A DNA stretch of 58,146 nt, from contig JBAZQS010000004.1 in the NCBI GenBank assembly GCA_041645075.1, positions 1 through 58,146 of the forward strand. Direction: 5' to 3'. Both the position numbers and the translations under genes were made by a program. Under the pieces are notes generated by a model. That model was not told where the DNA came from. It ran no database searches and worked only from the letters and a program-made list of their open reading frames with translations. Shown here piece after piece: positions 22,333 through 57,944 of the stretch. Source of the DNA: Patescibacteria group bacterium (GTDB taxonomy: Bacteria > Patescibacteriota > Patescibacteriia > 2-01-FULL-39-33). Numbering within the stretch: position 1 is the stretch's first letter; each line of letters begins with the position of its first letter.

Positions 22333-23841
22333 TTAACTTTCAAAATCAACTTGCCTGAAAACAAACGCAAGGCCTATCCACCAAATCATAATGCCAACAT
22401 ATTGCGTCCAAAGATAATGGTCAAACAAGCCAATCAGGCCCAAAGCTGGCCACAAAACCAATCCCGCCAAATTTTTATTTTTAACGGAAAATATTATGGC
22501 GTAAAAATAAAAAAATAAAAAAATAAAAAAGCCGATAAGGCCCAGCTCCGCCCAAACCAACAAAAAAATGTTGTGAACGGGCTGGTATTCATTGGTTTTT
22601 AAATTTGGATTTTGCTTATATAAATACCAAGTATAATTGCCCAAACCCGCGCCCAACAACCATTTATCTTTGATAATTTGTTCCGCCCCTTTCCTTAAGT
22701 CCGCTCTCCGGGCCAAGCTAATCCGCTCTAAATTTTCCCGGGCGGAAAAACGGGTGAACAATAACGGCCAATAAATTACTGATAAACAGCCAATCAATAT
22801 TATAATAGACGCGGTAATCTGCCATAACTCTTTTAAATATAATTTTTTAGCCGAACCCGGCTCGGGTTTTAAATATAGAGAGATGGTGGCAAAACTATTT
22901 TGTTGCGAAATTTTTGACTTTTTGAGCGAGACAAGGAGGGCCAGTAAAAAGATATGAGCCGTAGCAGCAGCTACGGTGAGAATCTTTTTGCGCCAGCCCG
23001 ACGAAGTCGCAGCCAAAAAGGACAAATTGCAGCAAAAATAGTTTTGCCACCATCTCAAAATATAGGCGAATAGGAAAATCAAATAGCCGACGCCCGCGCC
23101 CAGCCAAGCCGAACGGGAAAAGCTGAAAAAAATTCCGGCCGAAATAATTAAAATCAAGGCGATCAATAGTAATTTCATTTTCGGCTTGGCTAAATAATAT
23201 TTAAAATAAATAATCAAAGCCAAGAAAAAACCAAGCAACAAAAAACCGCCTAAAATATTCGGGTGGGGAAAACTGCCATACGGCCTTAACCAGAAACCGC
23301 TTGCTTCAATGACTACCGCTCCGACATCGCCGGGCCGATGGCCGGCCAAGCCCAGCCATTTGTTGGCCGCGACGGCTTGAGACAAAAATTGCCCAATGGC
23401 TAAAACCGCCTGAACCGCTCCGGCCGAAACGAGCGCCCAGTTTATTTTTTTTATATTAAATTTAAAATTTAAAATCAAAAAAAATAAAATAATGCCTTCG
23501 GCCAATTTAAACCACCAATAAAATGCCAGCGGTTTATCGGCGCTCCAAAAAATTGACAGAGAGGCCCATAAGAAAAAAATCCAAATCGCCAATACCGCCA
23601 ATAATTTTTTCCTATTGATTGACTTTAAATCAATTGAATATTTTCTGGCTCCGGCCCAGACGATTAACTGTAAAATCAAAATCAGCCACAAAATAATTTC
23701 CGACCCATACAAGCCATATGTGCCATATTGCCATTTACCGCCATTTAACATACCCTCCCGCCAAATCCAAACCGTCTGCCAGGGCAAAAAAAATAAAAAT
23801 AATAAAAACAGATATTCAATGACTTTTTTAATCTTGGCCAT
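22333..23841 (-). CDS. O-antigen ligase / Wzy_C-family polytopic membrane protein with in-frame repeat insertion
   Basis: More than 10 TM helices and the FSFSRSAWLG motif. Residues RWWQNYF...NSFATIS are encoded by a 177-bp TIR element. Confidence 0.65.
   Translation of the reverse strand: MAKIKKVIEYLFLLFLFFLPWQTVWIWREGMLNGGKWQYGTYGLYGSEIILWLILILQLIVWAGARKYSIDLKSINRKKLLAVLAIWIFFLWASLSIFWSADKPLAFYWWFKLAEGIILFFLILNFKFNIKKINWALVSAGAVQAVLAIGQFLSQAVAANKWLGLAGHRPGDVGAVVIEASGFWLRPYGSFPHPNILGGFLLLGFFLALIIYFKYYLAKPKMKLLLIALILIISAGIFFSFSRSAWLGAGVGYLIFLFAYILRWWQNYFCCNLSFLAATSSGWRKKILTVAAATAHIFLLALLVSLKKSKISQQNSFATISLYLKPEPGSAKKLYLKELWQITASIIILIGCLSVIYWPLLFTRFSARENLERISLARRADLRKGAEQIIKDKWLLGAGLGNYTWYLYKQNPNLKTNEYQPVHNIFLLVWAELGLIGFFIFLFFYFYAIIFSVKNKNLAGLVLWPALGLIGLFDHYLWTQYVGIMIWWIGLAFVFRQVDFES
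22880..23056. repeat. 177-bp TIR element, genic copy (in frame in the O-antigen-ligase-like ORF)
   Basis: GAGATGGTGGCAAAACTAT ... ATAGTTTTGCCACCATCTC termini and a central CGTAGC-N4-GCTACG hairpin. Homologous to 28695-28871. Confidence 0.85.
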
Positions 23842-28629: not shown

Positions 28630-28694
28630 AAAAATTATTATTTAAATTAATTTTTTTAAAGTAATCAGCCGCCAAGGCGACTGATTTATTAATT

Positions 28695-28871
28695 GAGATG
28701 GTTACAAAACTATTTTATCTATAAATTTAGGACTTTTTGAGCGAGACAAGGAGGGCAAGCGAAGAGATTTGAAGCGTAGCAGTAGCTACGGTGAAAATCT
28801 TTTCGCGCCAGCCCGACGAAGTCGTAGCCAAAAAGGACAAATTTAGAGAAATATAGTTTTGTAACCATCTC
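28695..28871. repeat. 177-bp TIR element, intergenic copy
   Basis: GAGATGGTTACAAAACTAT ... ATAGTTTTGTAACCATCTC termini. The same internal organisation as 22880-23056. Confidence 0.85.
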
Positions 28872-28915
28872 ATTGTCATAACTATATCAAAAAAATAAAT
28901 AAAGTGAAAGTGTCA

Positions 28916-35327: not shown

Positions 35328-35831
35328 TCATTTATATTTTTCCTGTTTTATTTTGCTCTTATCAAAGTCCTCCTCGCTGTGCTCTGGCGCTTCATTGGCG
35401 GGAACGCCCAGAGGCATCAGGCATAAAACCCGATATTCCTCGGGAATATTCAAAAGATTCTTAACTTCTTTCTCGGCCTTGTCATTACCTTTGATTTGAA
35501 TCCAGCCGCTGCCCAGCCCCTGTTCAGTCGCCTCAAGCCAAATATGTTCGGCGATAATAGAGCAATCTTCAACCCATTCCTTGCTTTCCTGCTCATGGCC
35601 AACCACCACGATTATGATATTGGCATTGGCCGCGTGCGTTGACCAGGGCGTGGTCTTGGATAATTTTTCTTTGGTCTGGGGGTCTTTAACGATAACCAAA
35701 TCCCAAGGATAGGCGGCATTGGCCGACGGCGCATACATGGCCGCCATAATAATCTCATTTAATTTTTCTTCCGGAATATTTTCCGCCAGGTATTCTCTGA
35801 CGGATCGGCGTTTTTTTATGGCTGGAATCAT
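35328..35831 (-). CDS. nitroreductase-family protein
   Basis: 167 aa, KKRRSVREY...APSANAAYPW pattern. Confidence 0.75.
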   Translation of the reverse strand: MIPAIKKRRSVREYLAENIPEEKLNEIIMAAMYAPSANAAYPWDLVIVKDPQTKEKLSKTTPWSTHAANANIIIVVVGHEQESKEWVEDCSIIAEHIWLEATEQGLGSGWIQIKGNDKAEKEVKNLLNIPEEYRVLCLMPLGVPANEAPEHSEEDFDKSKIKQEKYK

Positions 35832-35931
35832 GGATTTAATTTTTAATTTTTAAAAAATAGTAGGTTATGCGGTTATAAATAATTTATATACTGCTTGGGG
35901 GAATATTAGCAAAATAGCAGCCAAAAATCAA

Positions 35932-35960
35932 TTGACTTTTTAAATAAAATCTGTTATTAT
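35932..35960 (+). promoter_or_regulatory. sigma70-type promoter of the tRNA cluster
   Basis: TTGACT-17 nt-TATTAT, ~45 nt upstream of the first tRNA-derived sequence. Confidence 0.55.
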
Positions 35961-36005
35961 TGATTTTGATGTTTCTTGTTAAAAATGTCTAACTATAAAA
36001 AATTT

Positions 36006-36055
36006 GTCCGCGTAGCTCAGTGGATAGAGCAGTAGCCTTCTAAGCTATTGGTCGT
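36006..36055 (+). pseudogene. outer tRNA-Arg(TCT) 5' portion (positions 1 to ~50); its 3' acceptor strand is at 36206-36215
   Basis: 50 nt identical to the first 50 nt of the complete tRNA at 36096-36168. The T-arm is replaced by a 20-nt inverted repeat (36056-36075 / 36186-36205). Confidence 0.7.
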
Positions 36056-36095
36056 CCCCCACCATTTGCTCTCATAAATAAAATCGCTTGCTCTT

Positions 36096-36168
36096 GTCCG
36101 CGTAGCTCAGTGGATAGAGCAGTAGCCTTCTAAGCTATTGGTCGTAGGTTCGATTCCTACCGCGGACG
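36096..36168 (+). tRNA. tRNA-Arg(TCT)
   Basis: Hand-folded cloverleaf: GTCCGCG/CGCGGAC acceptor, GCTC/GAGC D-stem, anticodon loop CTTCTAA, T-arm GTAGG-TTCGATT-CCTAC; 73 nt. Confidence 0.85.
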
Positions 36169-36233
36169 CGAACCGCAGGCGAAAAATGAGAGCAAATGGT
36201 GGGGGACCGCGGACGATATTGTGCTGGCGATTG

Positions 36234-36307
36234 GCGCCCGTAGCTTAGCTGGATAAAGCGTTGGCCTCCGAAGCCAAAGATCGTGCGTTCAAATCGCGCC
36301 GGGCGCA
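36234..36307 (+). tRNA. tRNA-Arg(CCG)
   Basis: GCGCCCG/CGGGCGC acceptor, anticodon loop CTCCGAA, T-loop TTCAAAT; 74 nt. Confidence 0.85.
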
Positions 36308-36318
36308 TAAAAATTTAT

Positions 36319-36390
36319 GGTGACTATAGTTTAACGGTAGAACAGCGGGTTGTGATCCCGCTAGCGAGGGTCCAACTCCCTCTAGTCACC
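36319..36390 (+). tRNA. tRNA-His(GTG) with encoded G-1
   Basis: G-1 opposite C73, acceptor GTGACTA/TAGTCAC, anticodon loop TTGTGAT. Confidence 0.85.
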
Positions 36391-36407
36391 CAAACAAACA
36401 AAAATCA

Positions 36408-36440
36408 CCCCGATGTCACGTCGGGGTAATTTTTGTTTTG
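36408..36440 (+). terminator. intrinsic terminator after the tRNA cluster
   Basis: CCCCGA-loop-TCGGGG followed by TAATTTTTGTTTT. Confidence 0.6.
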
Positions 36441-36554
36441 ATAAAATTTCATTTCTAAACGGTCATTTTTAAATAAAAAAGAAAGGCGGGCTTGTTCAAA
36501 TGCCTGCCTTTCTGATATATGAATTTGATTGTTGTTAACTCCTATTATTAGATA

Positions 36555-36589
36555 CGCAAAAAATAGCCGGTTTATTTCAAACCGGCTAT
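36555..36589 (-). terminator. intrinsic terminator overlapping the end of the CapA-like gene
   Basis: The minus strand reads ATAGCCGGTTT-GAAAT-AAACCGGCTAT followed by TTTTTTGCG. Confidence 0.55.
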
Positions 36590-37692
36590 TTAATATTGAT
36601 GATTTCTGATTTTAAATTCATTCTTTTTAAAATTTCCTCAATTTCAATTTTATCCTTAACAATTTGCGGTTGGCCATAATCATAAATATGAATAGGAATA
36701 ATTTCTATTTTTTCTAAATTTTTATCTTTAAAATAGGCCTTGGCAATCGCGCCTTGCTGGGTTTCCCGCGACCACATCTGGTCAAAAACCAAATTGCCGA
36801 GCGAATATAAAATCGGCTTGCCCTGGTAAATTTCCGTGGTCTGGACCCAATGCGGATGATGGCCAATGACCAAATCCGCGCCCGCGTCAATTACGGCATG
36901 AGCAAAGTCCTTTTGCTGTTTATTCGGCGAGGCGATATATTCGGTTCCGGCGTGCATTTCAACGATTAAAATATCCACTTTCTTTTTAAACTCGCTCACA
37001 TCTTTTTTCGCTTGCTCAATGTTCATGTTAGCGATGCCCGCCACGCTGCCAGTCGCCACATACAAATCAGCCAGATAGCCGTAGCCCAAAAAACCAAACT
37101 TAAAGCCATTGGCTTCTATAATCTTGCCTTGACGCGCTTCGGTAAAATTTTTGCCCGCGCCCACATATTCAATCTGATTTTTTGCCAATAGATCAAAAGT
37201 ATCTAACATGCCATTCTGCCCCTTATCGCCAAAATGATTGTTGGCTAAGGTTATTAAATCAATGCCCGCGTCTTTTAATCCGCTTATAGCTTTCGGGTCG
37301 GCGTTGAAAGCAAATGAGCCGGTGAGCACGGTGTGGTCGCCGCCGTAAGTGAACGGCGATTCCAAATTAACGGCCGCGATATCAGCGTCCTTAAAAATTG
37401 AGGCCACATTTTTAAACGGCCAAAAAAAATCCTGATACTTAACCATTTTCTGGCCCACCACCCGCGACAGCATCACATCGCCGCCGAAAACCAAGGTGGT
37501 TTTTTTCGGCACAACAGGCGCGGGTGATAATTTATTGGTGGAGGTCGGCGCCAATTCATTTTCGCCCAAAATCTTTTCCGCGATTTTTTGAGTAGCCGCG
37601 GGCGCGTTAATAACTTTTACCGCCCAAAAAATCCCTAAAATTATGATCAGGGCCAACGCCAGCCAAAAATAAATTTTTTTATTGATTTTCAT
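36586..37692 (-). CDS. CapA-family (PGA_cap metallophosphatase-like) exported protein
   Basis: Signal anchor, GGDVMLSR, NLESP, ANNH and GHHPH motifs. Confidence 0.75.
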   Translation of the reverse strand: MKINKKIYFWLALALIIILGIFWAVKVINAPAATQKIAEKILGENELAPTSTNKLSPAPVVPKKTTLVFGGDVMLSRVVGQKMVKYQDFFWPFKNVASIFKDADIAAVNLESPFTYGGDHTVLTGSFAFNADPKAISGLKDAGIDLITLANNHFGDKGQNGMLDTFDLLAKNQIEYVGAGKNFTEARQGKIIEANGFKFGFLGYGYLADLYVATGSVAGIANMNIEQAKKDVSEFKKKVDILIVEMHAGTEYIASPNKQQKDFAHAVIDAGADLVIGHHPHWVQTTEIYQGKPILYSLGNLVFDQMWSRETQQGAIAKAYFKDKNLEKIEIIPIHIYDYGQPQIVKDKIEIEEILKRMNLKSEIINIK

Positions 37693-51182: not shown

Positions 51183-51242
51183 GTCGCTCGGGCCAGTAGC
51201 TCCCGCCTCGACTCGCGGAGTCGACGCGAGGCGGGAAGCGAC
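51183..51242. repeat. G+C-rich nested hairpin in an AT-rich spacer
   Basis: Outer stem GTCGCT/AGCGAC, a 13-nt 5' bulge, CCCGCCTCG/CGAGGCGGG, and inner GACTC-GCG-GAGTC. Confidence 0.5.
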
Positions 51243-51417: not shown

Positions 51418-52080
51418 ATGGCGCGTTTTAAAGATAGAGAAAAAGCTTTAGCTCTCAGAAAACAAGAAATGAGCTATAGTCAAATAAAGAAAATCTTGGG
51501 AGTAAGTAAAAGTACTTTGAGTCTTTGGCTTAGGGATTATCCCCTTTCTAAACAAAGAATAAGAGAACTTAGAGATTGCAACGAACAAAGAATTGAACGA
51601 TATCGAGAAACAAGACGCAAAACAAGAGAAAAAAGATTAAAAGAAACTTACGACATTCAAAAAAAATTATTGTTACCATTAACAAAAAGAGAGCTTTTTA
51701 TTGCGGGTTTGTTTCTTTATTTGGGTGAAGGTACAAAATATCGAATTTTTGGATTATCCGTTTCTAACACAGATCCTTCTGTAATCAAATTTTTCATCTA
51801 CTGGCTTAATAAAATTTTATCTGTTCCAAAAGAAAAAATAAACGTACAATTACAGTTATATAATGATATGGACATACAGAAAGAAATTAATTACTGGTCA
51901 ACAATATTAAAAATTCCGTTAAAACAATTTAGCAAACCATACATCAAAGAAACTTCGAGCAAAAGAATAAATCATAAAGGAAGCTTTGGTCATGGCACTT
52001 GCAATGTGCGAATTAATGACGTTAGACTTGGAGAAAAAATAATTATGAGCATAAAAACAATAAGCGATAAATATCAGTAA
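51418..52080 (+). CDS. free-standing HTH + LAGLIDADG-like homing-endonuclease-type protein
   Basis: N-terminal resolvase-type HTH (MSYSQIKKILGVSKSTLSLWLRD) and a LAGLIDADG-like motif (LFIAGLFLYLGEGTK). Very AT-rich. It lies immediately upstream of a disrupted tRNA cluster. Confidence 0.5.
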   Translation: MARFKDREKALALRKQEMSYSQIKKILGVSKSTLSLWLRDYPLSKQRIRELRDCNEQRIERYRETRRKTREKRLKETYDIQKKLLLPLTKRELFIAGLFLYLGEGTKYRIFGLSVSNTDPSVIKFFIYWLNKILSVPKEKINVQLQLYNDMDIQKEINYWSTILKIPLKQFSKPYIKETSSKRINHKGSFGHGTCNVRINDVRLGEKIIMSIKTISDKYQ

Positions 52081-52087
52081 ATTTTGT

Positions 52088-52163
52088 GGGCGTGTAGCTC
52101 AGTGGTAGTAGCACAAACCTTATAAGTTTGGGGTCGCAGGTTCGATCCCTGCCACGCCCACCA
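52088..52163 (+). tRNA. tRNA-Ile(TAT) with encoded CCA
   Basis: GGGCGTG/CACGCCC acceptor, anticodon loop CTTATAA, T-arm GCAGG-TTCGATC-CCTGC, 3' ACCA. There is one D-stem mismatch. Confidence 0.7.
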
Positions 52164-52174
52164 TATAAAAATTT

Positions 52175-52247
52175 GGGCACTTGGCGCAGTGGTTAGCGCG
52201 TTGCTTCGACATAACAGGGGTCGATGGTTCGAATCCATCTATGCGCA
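52175..52247 (+). pseudogene. degenerate tRNA-like sequence
   Basis: Good D-arm (GCGC-AGTGGTTA-GCGC) and T-arm (GATGG-TTCGAAT-CCATC). The acceptor pairs at only 4/7 positions, and the anticodon loop TCGACAT has C at position 33. Confidence 0.35.
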
Positions 52248-52262
52248 TTGAAAAATTAATAA

Positions 52263-52312
52263 GGACGGCTAGCTCAGTTGGTTAGAGCGTCTCGTTGACA
52301 TCGAGGAGGGTC
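52263..52312 (+). pseudogene. tRNA-Val(GAC) 5' fragment (acceptor 5' strand through the anticodon arm)
   Basis: GGACGGC-TA-GCTC-AGTTGGTTA-GAGC-G-TCTCG-TTGACAT-CGAGG. No matching T-arm or GCCGTCC 3' strand lies downstream. The fragment is followed directly by a repeat element. Confidence 0.65.
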
Positions 52313-52319
52313 GCGAAGC

Positions 52320-52393
52320 GACGGGCAGAAGCGAGGCGAAGACGAGCGTAGATGAATGCGAGCAAGTGCGAGCATTCAGCTCTGCCCGGGAAC
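52320..52393. repeat. G+C-rich hairpin module fused to the tRNA-Val fragment (reverse-complement copy inside GT4 at 21355-21475)
   Basis: GACGGGCAGAAGCGAGGCGAAGACGAGCGTAGATGAATGCGA ... GCATTCAGCTCTGCCC. Outer stem GGGCAGA/TCTGCCC, inner stem GAATGC/GCATTC. Confidence 0.75.
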
Positions 52394-52420
52394 ACAAGTT
52401 CAATTCTCATAAAACAATAA

Positions 52421-52555: not shown

Positions 52556-54091
52556 ATGAAAGAAATTGAGCAAAAATTAATCAATTGGCAAGAAGCTGTC
52601 CTAAAACAGCCGGCTTTTAATTTTATTAAAAAAATAATTAAACAATTTCCCGAAGCCAATATTTATTTGGTCGGCGGCGCGGTAAGGGATATTATCCTTG
52701 AAAGAGAAACAAAAGATTTTGACTTTGTGGTCGGAAAAATAGAAGCGAAAGACATAGAAAAATTTTTAGCCAAAGAAGGAAAAATAAATTTGGTCGGCAA
52801 AAGTTTTGGGGTGTTTAAATTCGTTCCCGACCCCCTCCTTCACCTCCCCCTTAATAAGGGGGAGGGGGGTGGGGGTTTAGATCCCATTGACATTGCCCTG
52901 CCCCGCACCGAGCACGCGAGTATGACCGGCGGTTATCGCGACTTTGAAATTCAAAGCGACAAAAATTTGCCGATTGAAGAGGACTTGGGCCGGCGCGATT
53001 TCACCATCAATGCTCTGGCTTGGGACATTAAAAATCAAAAATTAATTGATGAATTCGGCGGGATAAAAGATTTAGAAAATAAAATTATCAAAGCCATTGG
53101 CCAGCCCGAGCAAAGATTCCAAGAGGACTATACGAGAATGTTAAGGGCCATTAGATTTTCCTGCCAGCTTAATTTTGAAATAGAAAACAAAACCTTATCC
53201 ACCATCAAAAAAAAGGCGGAAGAAATCAGATCAATACCGAAAGAAAGAATCAATGAAGAATTGACGAAAATCATTATGTCCGATAACGCCGAAACCGGAT
53301 TGCGTTCAATGCAAAAAATCGGCTTGATTAAAATTTTAATTCCGGAACTGGAAGAAGGCGTGGGCGTAGGGCAAAACAAGGAACACATTTATGAGGTGTT
53401 TGAGCACAATATCCGCTCTCTCGGCGCGGCGGCCCAAAAAAAATTCAAACTGGAAATTCGGCTGGCCGCCTTATTTCATGATATCGGCAAACCAATGGCC
53501 AAAGAAGGCGACGGTCCTAATTCTACTTTTTATAATCATGACCAAATGGGCGCTAAGATGACCAAGGAAATCTTAAAACACTTGAATTATCCAAATGATA
53601 TTATAAAAAAAGTCACTCATTTGGTGCGTTATCATATGTTTTATTATGCCTTGGATACGGTGAGCGACGCCGGCGTCAGGCGCTTGCTTAATCGGCTCGG
53701 CCAAGAAAATATTGAGGACTTTATTAATGTCAGAATCTGCGACCGCTTGGGCATGGGCCGGCCTAAGGCCAAACCGTGGAAATTAATTGAGCTGGAAAAA
53801 CGATTCAAAGAAGTGGTCCTGGAACCGATTACGCCGAAAATGTTAAAGATTAACGGCCGGGAAATAATGGCCAGCCAAAAATTAAAACCCGGCCCAAAAA
53901 TCGGCTTGCTCTTGAACGCTATTTTAGGAGAAATTTTAGAAAACCCCGAAAAAAACGATAAAGAATATTTATTAAAAAGAGTTGAAGAATTGAATGAATT
54001 TTCGGATGAAAAGCTAAAATCAATGCATCCGGATATTAAATTTTATGAAGAAGAAAGAAAACGGCTCCTTCATCAAAAAAATAAAAGTTAA
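52556..54091 (+). CDS. cca: CCA-adding tRNA nucleotidyltransferase with HD domain, carrying an in-frame palindromic insertion
   Basis: GGAVRD and RDFTINA motifs and an HD region (LFHDIGKP). The segment PDPLLHLPLNKGEGGGGLDP is encoded by a repeat. Confidence 0.8.
   Translation: MKEIEQKLINWQEAVLKQPAFNFIKKIIKQFPEANIYLVGGAVRDIILERETKDFDFVVGKIEAKDIEKFLAKEGKINLVGKSFGVFKFVPDPLLHLPLNKGEGGGGLDPIDIALPRTEHASMTGGYRDFEIQSDKNLPIEEDLGRRDFTINALAWDIKNQKLIDEFGGIKDLENKIIKAIGQPEQRFQEDYTRMLRAIRFSCQLNFEIENKTLSTIKKKAEEIRSIPKERINEELTKIIMSDNAETGLRSMQKIGLIKILIPELEEGVGVGQNKEHIYEVFEHNIRSLGAAAQKKFKLEIRLAALFHDIGKPMAKEGDGPNSTFYNHDQMGAKMTKEILKHLNYPNDIIKKVTHLVRYHMFYYALDTVSDAGVRRLLNRLGQENIEDFINVRICDRLGMGRPKAKPWKLIELEKRFKEVVLEPITPKMLKINGREIMASQKLKPGPKIGLLLNAILGEILENPEKNDKEYLLKRVEELNEFSDEKLKSMHPDIKFYEEERKRLLHQKNKS
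52829..52876. repeat. G+C-rich palindromic module inside cca
   Basis: CCTCCCCCTTA-A-TAAGGGGGAGG (52843-52865) with C-run and G-run flanks. The core is the same as at 19709-19731. Confidence 0.75.
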
Positions 54092-57853: not shown

Positions 57854-57857
57854 ATAT

Positions 57858-57899
57858 TAACACTTAACACTTAACACTTAACCATTAACCGTTAACTTA
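57858..57899 (+). repeat. tandem heptamer repeat (TTAACNN)x6 between two tRNAs
   Basis: TTAACAC TTAACAC TTAACAC TTAACCA TTAACCG TTAACTT, followed by two GTTAATTGT motifs at 57909 and 57930. Confidence 0.8.
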
Positions 57900-57944
57900 A
57901 AACTTATTGTTAATTGTCAACTGTCAAAAGTTAATTGTTATCGT

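Follow-up and report, generated by a model that had tools for sequence, protein, structure and literature searches.

The free-standing homing endonuclease SegB of phage T4 brings about intronless homing in a tRNA gene cluster (PMC2330249; PMC13096335). In Caldiarchaeum, a 5′ fragment of tRNA-Thr is followed by a recombinase element and a tRNA (PMC3293823), and archaeal tRNAs are known that carry non-canonical introns or are split (PMC4090602, PMC4033280). We analysed a locus that can be set beside these systems, located in a window of 58,146 nucleotides (the whole stretch of DNA under study) of an ultra-small bacterium of the Patescibacteria, in which a complete tRNA-Arg(TCT) gene lies inside a second copy of itself whose T-arm is replaced by a long helix. 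The original prediction, made from the sequence alone, knew of no described equivalent, and for the literature searched this holds: a full-text search found no description of a bacterial tRNA gene nested in a copy of itself.

The insert, referred to here as the cassette, shares features with each of several known classes. In SegB-type cassettes a selfish unit in a tRNA region is passed on jointly with a tRNA allele of its own, and the resident allele is displaced; an ORF and a tRNA stand in that same relation in a sister-lineage locus (contig L071) and at the tRNA-Ile locus of the window. Unlike SegB homing, however, the tRNA-Arg cassette is ORF-less, no nuclease domain is recognisable in the associated ORF family, and what is left of the resident gene encloses the new copy and its hairpin arms. 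With regard to what defines a homing cassette, occupied and empty alleles are present, and a nuclease gene in or next to the tRNA-Arg cassette is absent. As in genomic islands and prophages, which regenerate the tRNA genes that they enter and leave att repeats, the insert supplies the lost tRNA sequence and partial tRNA copies form direct repeats; in contrast to them, the cassette measures 150 nt instead of kilobases, has no integrase, carries a whole tRNA and not just the 3′ part, and has inverted arms. The 3′ part of the tRNA, which islands repeat at both ends, is repeated here over 10 nt, while the main direct repeat is the 52-nt 5′ part. MITEs and small palindromic elements such as the Rickettsia RPEs are likewise small and ORF-less, end in perfect terminal inverted repeats and are able to sit inside genes. 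Unlike MITEs, the cassette has no target-site duplication and part of its target is deleted, a second copy was looked for in the window, the JGI metagenomes and IMG/VR and not found, and its cargo is a presumably functional gene identical to the target. Archaeal tRNA introns also interrupt the tRNA at non-canonical positions and are closed by a helix of their own two ends, but here there is no bulge-helix-bulge, excision would restore no T-loop, the host is a bacterium and the insert holds a whole tRNA gene. Group I introns in bacterial tRNAs differ in having a ribozyme core; in the Rfam search of 35500-36900 (E up to 1), only tRNA matches were obtained, and the insert is only 150 nt long. Finally, the RNase III stems of rRNA operons resemble the arms in being long perfect leader-trailer helices of a stable RNA in a polycistronic precursor, but relatives do not share the cassette helix, and pieces of the same gene lie to either side of it.

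Anatomy and transcription of the nested tRNA-Arg(TCT) locus

Reading of the sequence together with a repeat search confirmed to the base the layout that had been predicted, in which an outer tRNA is interrupted by two inverted arms, two spacers and a full inner tRNA. The features are as follows.

35932..35960, + strand: resident promoter TTGACT-17-TATTAT with extended TG, ~45 nt upstream of the outer copy
36006..36055, + strand: 5′ part of the outer copy, tRNA nt 1-50 (acceptor 5′ strand, D-arm, anticodon arm, variable loop and first 2 nt of the T-stem)
36054..36075, + strand: left cassette arm, its first 2 nt being tRNA nt 49-50
36076..36095, + strand: left spacer S1
36096..36168, + strand: inner complete tRNA-Arg(TCT), the presumed working gene, with no encoded CCA
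36169..36185, + strand: right spacer S2
36186..36207, + strand: right cassette arm (from the repeat search)
36206..36215, + strand: 3′ part of the outer copy, tRNA nt 64-73, followed by the native flank ATATTGTGCTGGCGATTG
36234..36427, + strand: rest of the transcription unit, with tRNA-Arg(CCG), tRNA-His(GTG) and an intrinsic terminator at 36407-36427

The inner copy is a complete tRNA-Arg(TCT), as had been claimed: ARAGORN called it as Arg-tct and it scored 74.1 bits against the Rfam tRNA model. Its first 50 nt are 100% identical to those of the outer copy (36006-36055 = 36096-36145), and the repeat search extended this direct repeat to 52 nt (36004-36055 = 36094-36145, 100%). When both copies were scored, ARAGORN called the inner one only (36096-36169), and the outer 5′ piece gave a partial Rfam tRNA match of 25.4 bits, below the gathering threshold of 29 bits. 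Of the outer copy, nt 1-50 and nt 64-73 remain and nt 51-63 are missing. Its 3′ end consists of the last 10 nt of the tRNA, ACCGCGGACG at 36206-36215, a repeat of 36159-36168. It therefore retains a D-arm and an anticodon arm and has the long helix in place of the T-arm. The stem, predicted at 20-22 bp, is made of CCCCCACCATTTGCTCTCAT and its reverse complement. G49-T50 and A64-C65 of the outer tRNA prolong the arm helix, and the inverted repeat is thus perfect over 22 nt (36054-36075 / 36186-36207); 110 nt separate its arms. The left and right spacers measure 20 nt and 17 nt, as predicted. In shuffles of the window the expected number of occurrences of the arm 20-mer was 0.00, and, simple palindromes aside, the arm pair is the only perfect one among the inverted repeats of the window whose arms lie no more than 300 nt apart.

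Depending on whether the shared nucleotides are counted, the cassette runs from 36054 or 36056 to 36205 or 36207 and is 150-154 nt long, 73 of its ~150 nt being the inner tRNA. It is flanked by GGTC(GT) and (AC)CGCGGACG and replaces 13-17 nt of the target, that is, the T-arm. A target-site duplication is absent at these flanks. Ordinary transposition does not explain such an insertion, because 13-17 nt of the target are missing and nothing is duplicated.

Folding of the nested locus gave a minimum free energy (MFE) of -111.2 kcal/mol (z = -10). The MFE fold contains the outer acceptor stem, in agreement with the prediction that the outer acceptor strands can still pair, as well as the outer anticodon arm, the 22-bp helix and an additional 8-bp spacer helix. 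The latter pairs 36084-36091 of S1 with 36175-36182 of S2, includes one G-U pair and ends 4 nt (5′ side) and 6 nt (3′ side) from the inner tRNA. With 22 bp plus 8 bp, the mature RNA is surrounded by a leader-trailer helix of about two turns, as in RNase III-type stems, and an rnc gene does lie in the window, as predicted (NERLEFLGDA motif, ~56.0 kb). The conservation among relatives that an RNase III stem should display is not found, plain relatives having no helix. The 22-bp helix is continuous and free of bulges, with no bulge-helix-bulge, and joining of the outer halves would give no T-loop because nt 51-63 are absent. The RNA sequencing runs checked for this organism had only conserved tRNA words in common with it.

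The site at 35932-35960 is the sole + strand promoter-like site ahead of the tRNA operon, and a search for a promoter of the inner copy found none. Because the sole promoter lies upstream of the outer copy, the inner tRNA can be transcribed only through the outer 5′ fragment. The promoter box TTGACTTTTT is also found upstream of tRNA-Arg(TCT) at seven loci of other Patescibacteria (L002, L004, L012, L013, L071, L074 and L136), and the native flank ATATTGTGCTGGCGATTG lies directly 3′ of tRNA-Arg(TCT) in L069 and L071 and in a contig of metagenomic run X11. Over the downstream flank, tRNA-Arg(CCG) and tRNA-His included, the identity to L069/L071, which also keep the promoter box, is 96.2%. The outer fragments correspond to the resident gene, since they have the conserved promoter on one side and the conserved downstream flank on the other. 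The neighbouring ORFs encode a nitroreductase and a CapA-like protein; homologues of the latter occur mostly in other gene contexts, which makes them of little use for synteny comparison. No integrase, nuclease or recombinase gene was found in or beside the cassette, and the insert has no ORF.

Population alleles and relatives of the locus

To be weighed against a mis-assembly, which according to the original prediction would refute the nest, we have Logan unitigs (k=31 graph) from two unrelated metagenomes and an independent contig, and all of them uphold it. Unitigs of a groundwater run (X1), covering 35800-36033, 36026-36123 and 36116-36280, bridged every unique junction with 0 differences. 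A unitig of a landfill run from a different study (X2, 36025-36123) covered the left junction only, also with 0 differences. The unitigs break solely at the expected points, because the 52-nt repeat exceeds k=31. The ENA contig L001, assembled with MEGAHIT, is 99.985% identical over 6.5 kb and has the identical structure. Several samples thus contain the nested structure as real DNA.

A variant of the cassette in run X3 carries 36086 G>A, 36087 C>T, 36088 T>C and 36092 T>C, with the right junction unchanged. Three of these substitutions fall in the spacer helix, and no matching changes are listed on the opposite strand; one further difference, near the right arm, lies close to the contig ends. 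Directly to the left of 36054 this variant has a different sequence, GGGCGGTGGGCCGA, the change lying exactly at 36053/36054. This switch in the X3 sequence speaks for a cassette boundary at 36054. In the X11 contig, the tRNA 3′ end (36168) is joined straight to 36218 with nothing between, an empty right junction whose right side shows 0 differences; this plain allele has four differences, close to the contig ends. Occupied and empty alleles therefore coexist: nested in X1, X2 and L001, variant in X3, and with an empty right junction in X11. The nest is a presence/absence polymorphism among close relatives.

Comparison with the orthologous locus in related genomes, which had been proposed as a check, showed a plain gene in close as well as distant relatives and other insertions in sister lineages. 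All 12 species genomes that share a 24-mer of tRNA-Arg(TCT) have one plain gene, and the inner tRNA is identical in 73/73 nt to the plain genes of L002 and L004. Further loci were collected through the neighbouring nitroreductase, and the similarities that follow refer to the window's nitroreductase. The tRNA-Arg(TCT) gene is plain in L076 (74% aa) and in L136 (72% aa); in L132 (72% aa) neither stub nor nest was noted in the ARAGORN gene calls used for this locus, and the context is different, a CofD-family gene abutting the nitroreductase. At the L071/L069 locus (96.2% nt), the promoter is followed by a GTCCGCG-type 5′ stub, a 217-aa ORF, a different full tRNA-Arg(TCT) (GCCCTTG...) and the native flank. 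The resident stub of L071 (1885-2760, - strand) comprises nt 1 to ~38, being broken at the anticodon loop or just past the anticodon, and leads into the 217-aa ORF, which encodes a helix-turn-helix (HTH) protein. L074 (77% aa) has a stub of nt 1-46, a short hairpin, a GC-rich element of ~110 nt and a full tRNA, and L134 (74% aa) has a 5′ half with a GC-rich D-loop insert and then a full tRNA. The tRNA-Arg(TCT) gene is thus a hot spot at which other insertions, too, have left a 5′ tRNA stub behind, and it occurs in three different states within ~4% sequence divergence. In L074 and L134 the stub matches the lineage's own tRNA, and there local duplication or gene conversion is a possible origin. 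As a separate observation, the D-loop insert of L134 (1199-1375, - strand), which is ~125 nt long and directly upstream of the full gene, contains TAGAAGCGAC and CAGAAGCGAAGCG.

Other tRNA loci and a family of HTH proteins

Related arrangements were found at two other tRNA loci of the window. At the tRNA-Ile locus, a 13-nt stub (~51192-51204, GGGCCAGTAGCTC), taken on visual inspection for the 5′ end of a tRNA, precedes a GC hairpin, and a 220-aa ORF (51418-52080, + strand) ends 7 nt before tRNA-Ile(TAT), which begins at 52088. In contig L079 the counterpart of this stub is GGGCGTGTAGCTC, with a different insert. The 220-aa ORF is homologous to the 217-aa ORF of L071 (39% identity, E 2e-38) and encodes an N-terminal HTH_23 domain and an uncharacterised C-terminal domain with the motif FIAGLFLYLGEGTK. 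The family has more than 2,500 proteins, and all named sources are Patescibacteria. In 4/4 contexts examined (the window, L071, the L079 group and L089), a member lies directly 5′ of a tRNA. Searches of Pfam and NCBIfam detected the HTH and no nuclease domain, and an AlphaFold model (pLDDT 84) had no significant Foldseek match in PDB or BFVD. An assignment of the 217/220-aa ORFs to the LAGLIDADG enzymes, on account of an LYLGEG-type motif, was considered and rejected, being unsupported by Pfam, NCBIfam, a PDB sequence profile and Foldseek; the motif is not evidence, because there is no domain or structural neighbour behind it in this family.

At the tRNA-Val locus (52262-52420), a 5′ stub of tRNA-Val(GAC), whose acceptor reads GGACGGC vs GGACATT in the working gene, is followed by a hairpin, GTCGCGAAGCGAC, a GC-rich element of ~95 nt and then the working tRNA-Val. 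The GC-rich element had no Rfam match. It is homologous to the insert of L074 (0/500 shuffles), the two having in common CAGAAGCGAG...GAGCATTCA.CTCTG.CC.GGAAC. A second nest is present in L079 at 2265-2440, where a complete tRNA-Val(GAC) lies between the arms CCCCCCACCAAT and ATTGGTGGGGGG, in a shell whose whole anticodon arm is replaced. This nest is identical in ten contigs from several groundwater samples, its layout is alike to that of the tRNA-Arg cassette, and the arms of both begin with CCCCCACCA. The likeness in CCCCCACCA is weak evidence, given that C-run/G-run hairpins also occur elsewhere in this genome. The window also holds, at 52174-52248, a degenerate tRNA-Val(GAC)-like gene with 5/7 acceptor pairs, the 5′ part of which, GGGCACTTGGCGCAGTGGTTAGCGC, equals the outer shell of the L079 nest.

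We then consider copies of the arms themselves. No second arm copy was found in the 58-kb window, the JGI metagenome collection or IMG/VR, and a search of the window for the source of the arm and spacer filler gave no match. A single match to the arm 20-mer in the JGI metagenomes was discarded as chance, since the ORF in which it lies is methyltransferase-like and belongs to an unrelated organism whose G+C content is 47-49%. The 54 matches of the arm 17-mer in IMG/VR were set aside as coincidence, nearly all of them being in one conserved phage coding gene. The arm-pair motif CCCCCACCA...TGGTGGGGG had 41 matches in viral contigs of IMG/VR, none with a tRNA between the arms; because of these tRNA-free matches, the motif alone is not diagnostic. 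One likeness was found outside the arms: S1 and the preceding AT match the -35 region upstream of the L089 HTH-ORF in 20/22 positions with one gap, a score reached by 0/500 shuffles. This match hints that the cassette may descend from an ORF-bearing one by deletion.

Origin of the cassette and rival explanations

We favour, with a probability of about 0.6, the explanation that a hairpin-ended cassette of 150-154 nt carrying a complete tRNA-Arg(TCT) replaced the T-arm of a resident tRNA-Arg(TCT) gene and supplies its working copy. Of the three options raised in the original prediction, that of an inverted-end element with its own replacement tRNA fits best: promoter and flank lie outside the outer copy, the right junction exists in an empty form, and other insertions occur in the same gene. 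The option is amended in that the T-arm was replaced, and the absence of a target duplication, and of a second arm copy in the collections searched, speaks against it. An origin outside the resident gene is supported by the empty and occupied alleles, by the different alleles in stub and full copy (L071, tRNA-Val), by the second nest with similar arms and by the S1-L089 match. The inner tRNA is itself identical to the outer fragments, so that its foreign origin is not demonstrable from the sequence, and because no second arm copy was found in the window, the JGI metagenomes or IMG/VR, mobility of the tRNA-Arg cassette is inferred only.

If the cassette arose in this manner, it is probably related to the ORF-plus-tRNA cassettes of the sister-lineage locus and of tRNA-Ile in the window, either as a relative that has no ORF or as a product of deletion; once the resident gene had been broken, recombination or gene conversion would have spread it within the population. 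We infer that the inner copy is the only working gene and is read from the resident promoter. A single precursor would contain, in this order, the outer 5′ piece, an arm, the inner tRNA, the other arm, the outer 3′ piece, tRNA-Arg(CCG) and tRNA-His, and the inner tRNA would be freed by the ordinary tRNA end-processing enzymes. The 22-bp and 8-bp helices probably close the inner pre-tRNA on itself, and the identical outer 5′ piece would thereby be barred from competing for the inner 3′ strand; the arm helix may also be a substrate of RNase III. The outer copy would be a dead shell, because its T-loop is absent. The insertion would be tolerated because the cassette supplies the gene that it destroyed, by a logic resembling that of an intron but through replacement and not splicing.

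A local repair scar, the third option of the original prediction, is a weaker rival that we regard as rather unlikely. According to this explanation, the resident gene broke in its T-arm and was repaired off a sister copy by synthesis that was error-prone, switched templates or folded back, so that the gene duplication and the inverted arms arose in one accident and no mobile element took part. The 100% identity of the inner and outer copies agrees with it, as do the uniqueness of the arms in the window and the JGI metagenomes, the lack of both a target duplication and an enzyme gene, and the stubs that match their lineage's own tRNA (A6 in both copies of L074, GTCCCCG in both of L134), which would fit local duplication. 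Fold-back synthesis, however, would copy adjacent sequence, and the arms and spacers match nothing nearby. S1 resembles the promoter region of an ORF cassette in another genome (L089), the L079 nest repeats the layout with a similar arm start, and in L071 and the tRNA-Val locus of the window the full tRNA is of another allele than the stub, which shows import and not local copying. An artefact of assembly, in the form of a collapsed or chimeric duplication, can hardly be the answer. The 52-nt repeat does exceed common k-mers and breaks de Bruijn graphs, but unitigs with 0 differences run over the junctions in two unrelated samples (both halves in X1, the left one in X2), an independent MEGAHIT contig is identical, and a diverged variant of the cassette comes from a third study (X3).

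It is improbable, too, that the locus is a functional RNA design, either a precursor selected for its long helix as an RNase III-type processing or regulatory stem, or a pair of outer pieces that, held together by base pairing, would serve a function of their own as a tRNA-like RNA lacking the T-arm. Such a design would account for the very stable fold closing the inner tRNA, for the G-U pair in the spacer helix and for the intact acceptor, D-arm and anticodon arm of the outer copy; a helix substitutes a whole tRNA arm both here and in L079, as though by a logic at the level of structure, and rnc is present. Yet close and distant relatives with a plain gene do without it, the three spacer-helix substitutions of X3 lack listed partner changes, and the outer copy falls under the Rfam tRNA threshold. 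A bacterial tRNA without a T-loop would moreover have no elbow, and the elbow is used by RNase P, the CCA-adding enzyme and EF-Tu. The predicted RNase III processing helix may stand as a secondary property of the transcript, but not as the reason why the structure exists, because plain relatives have no helix.

Returning to a cassette that replaced the T-arm, the nested locus looks like one case of largely undescribed small selfish insertions that break tRNA genes while supplying the replacement. New here are the replacement of a whole arm, the T-arm, the occupied, variant and empty alleles in the population, the presence of three different occupants in one tRNA gene within ~4% divergence, and the negative result on LAGLIDADG. 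A more far-reaching proposal, which we put forward as speculation, is an undescribed class of tRNA-gene-specific mobile elements in Patescibacteria that would act by a structure-directed "arm swap". In this process a tRNA stem-loop, in the single-stranded DNA of the gene or in the transcript, would be exchanged for a cassette hairpin whose loop holds a complete replacement tRNA, so that insertion would be neutral without splicing; the HTH-ORF family (>2,500) would provide the missing enzyme, and ORF-less nests would be non-autonomous passengers. If the explanation by a replacement cassette is right, bacteria with tiny genomes and single-copy tRNA genes tolerate selfish insertions in these essential genes, the invader bringing a full spare copy clamped by a hairpin. 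Functionally this would amount to an intron that can do without splicing, a trick not found described in the literature searched, and the large, uncharacterised, tRNA-linked HTH family would be a concrete candidate for a new site-specific DNA enzyme. In practice, tRNA finders and annotators should then expect shells of broken genes, halves present in duplicate and interrupted contigs at the tRNA loci of such genomes, and tRNA alleles may move horizontally at high rates.

Three kinds of repeat were observed in addition to those at the loci described above. Two element copies of ~190 nt, 87% identical to each other, lie at 22873-23063 and 28694-28872 of the window; they have terminal inverted repeats of 23-29 nt and a GC-rich structured core, and are MITE-like or small-RNA-like in appearance. 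At 52831-52875, inside the gene of the CCA-adding enzyme, there is an in-frame C-run/G-run hairpin (CCCCCTCC...CCTCCCCCTTAATAAGGGGGAGG...GGTGGGGG), the G-arm of which resembles the base of the cassette arm. Spacers between tRNA genes at 57854-57944 of the window and at ~1240-1287 of L136 (- strand) are made of short repeats of the TTAAC(A/C) type.
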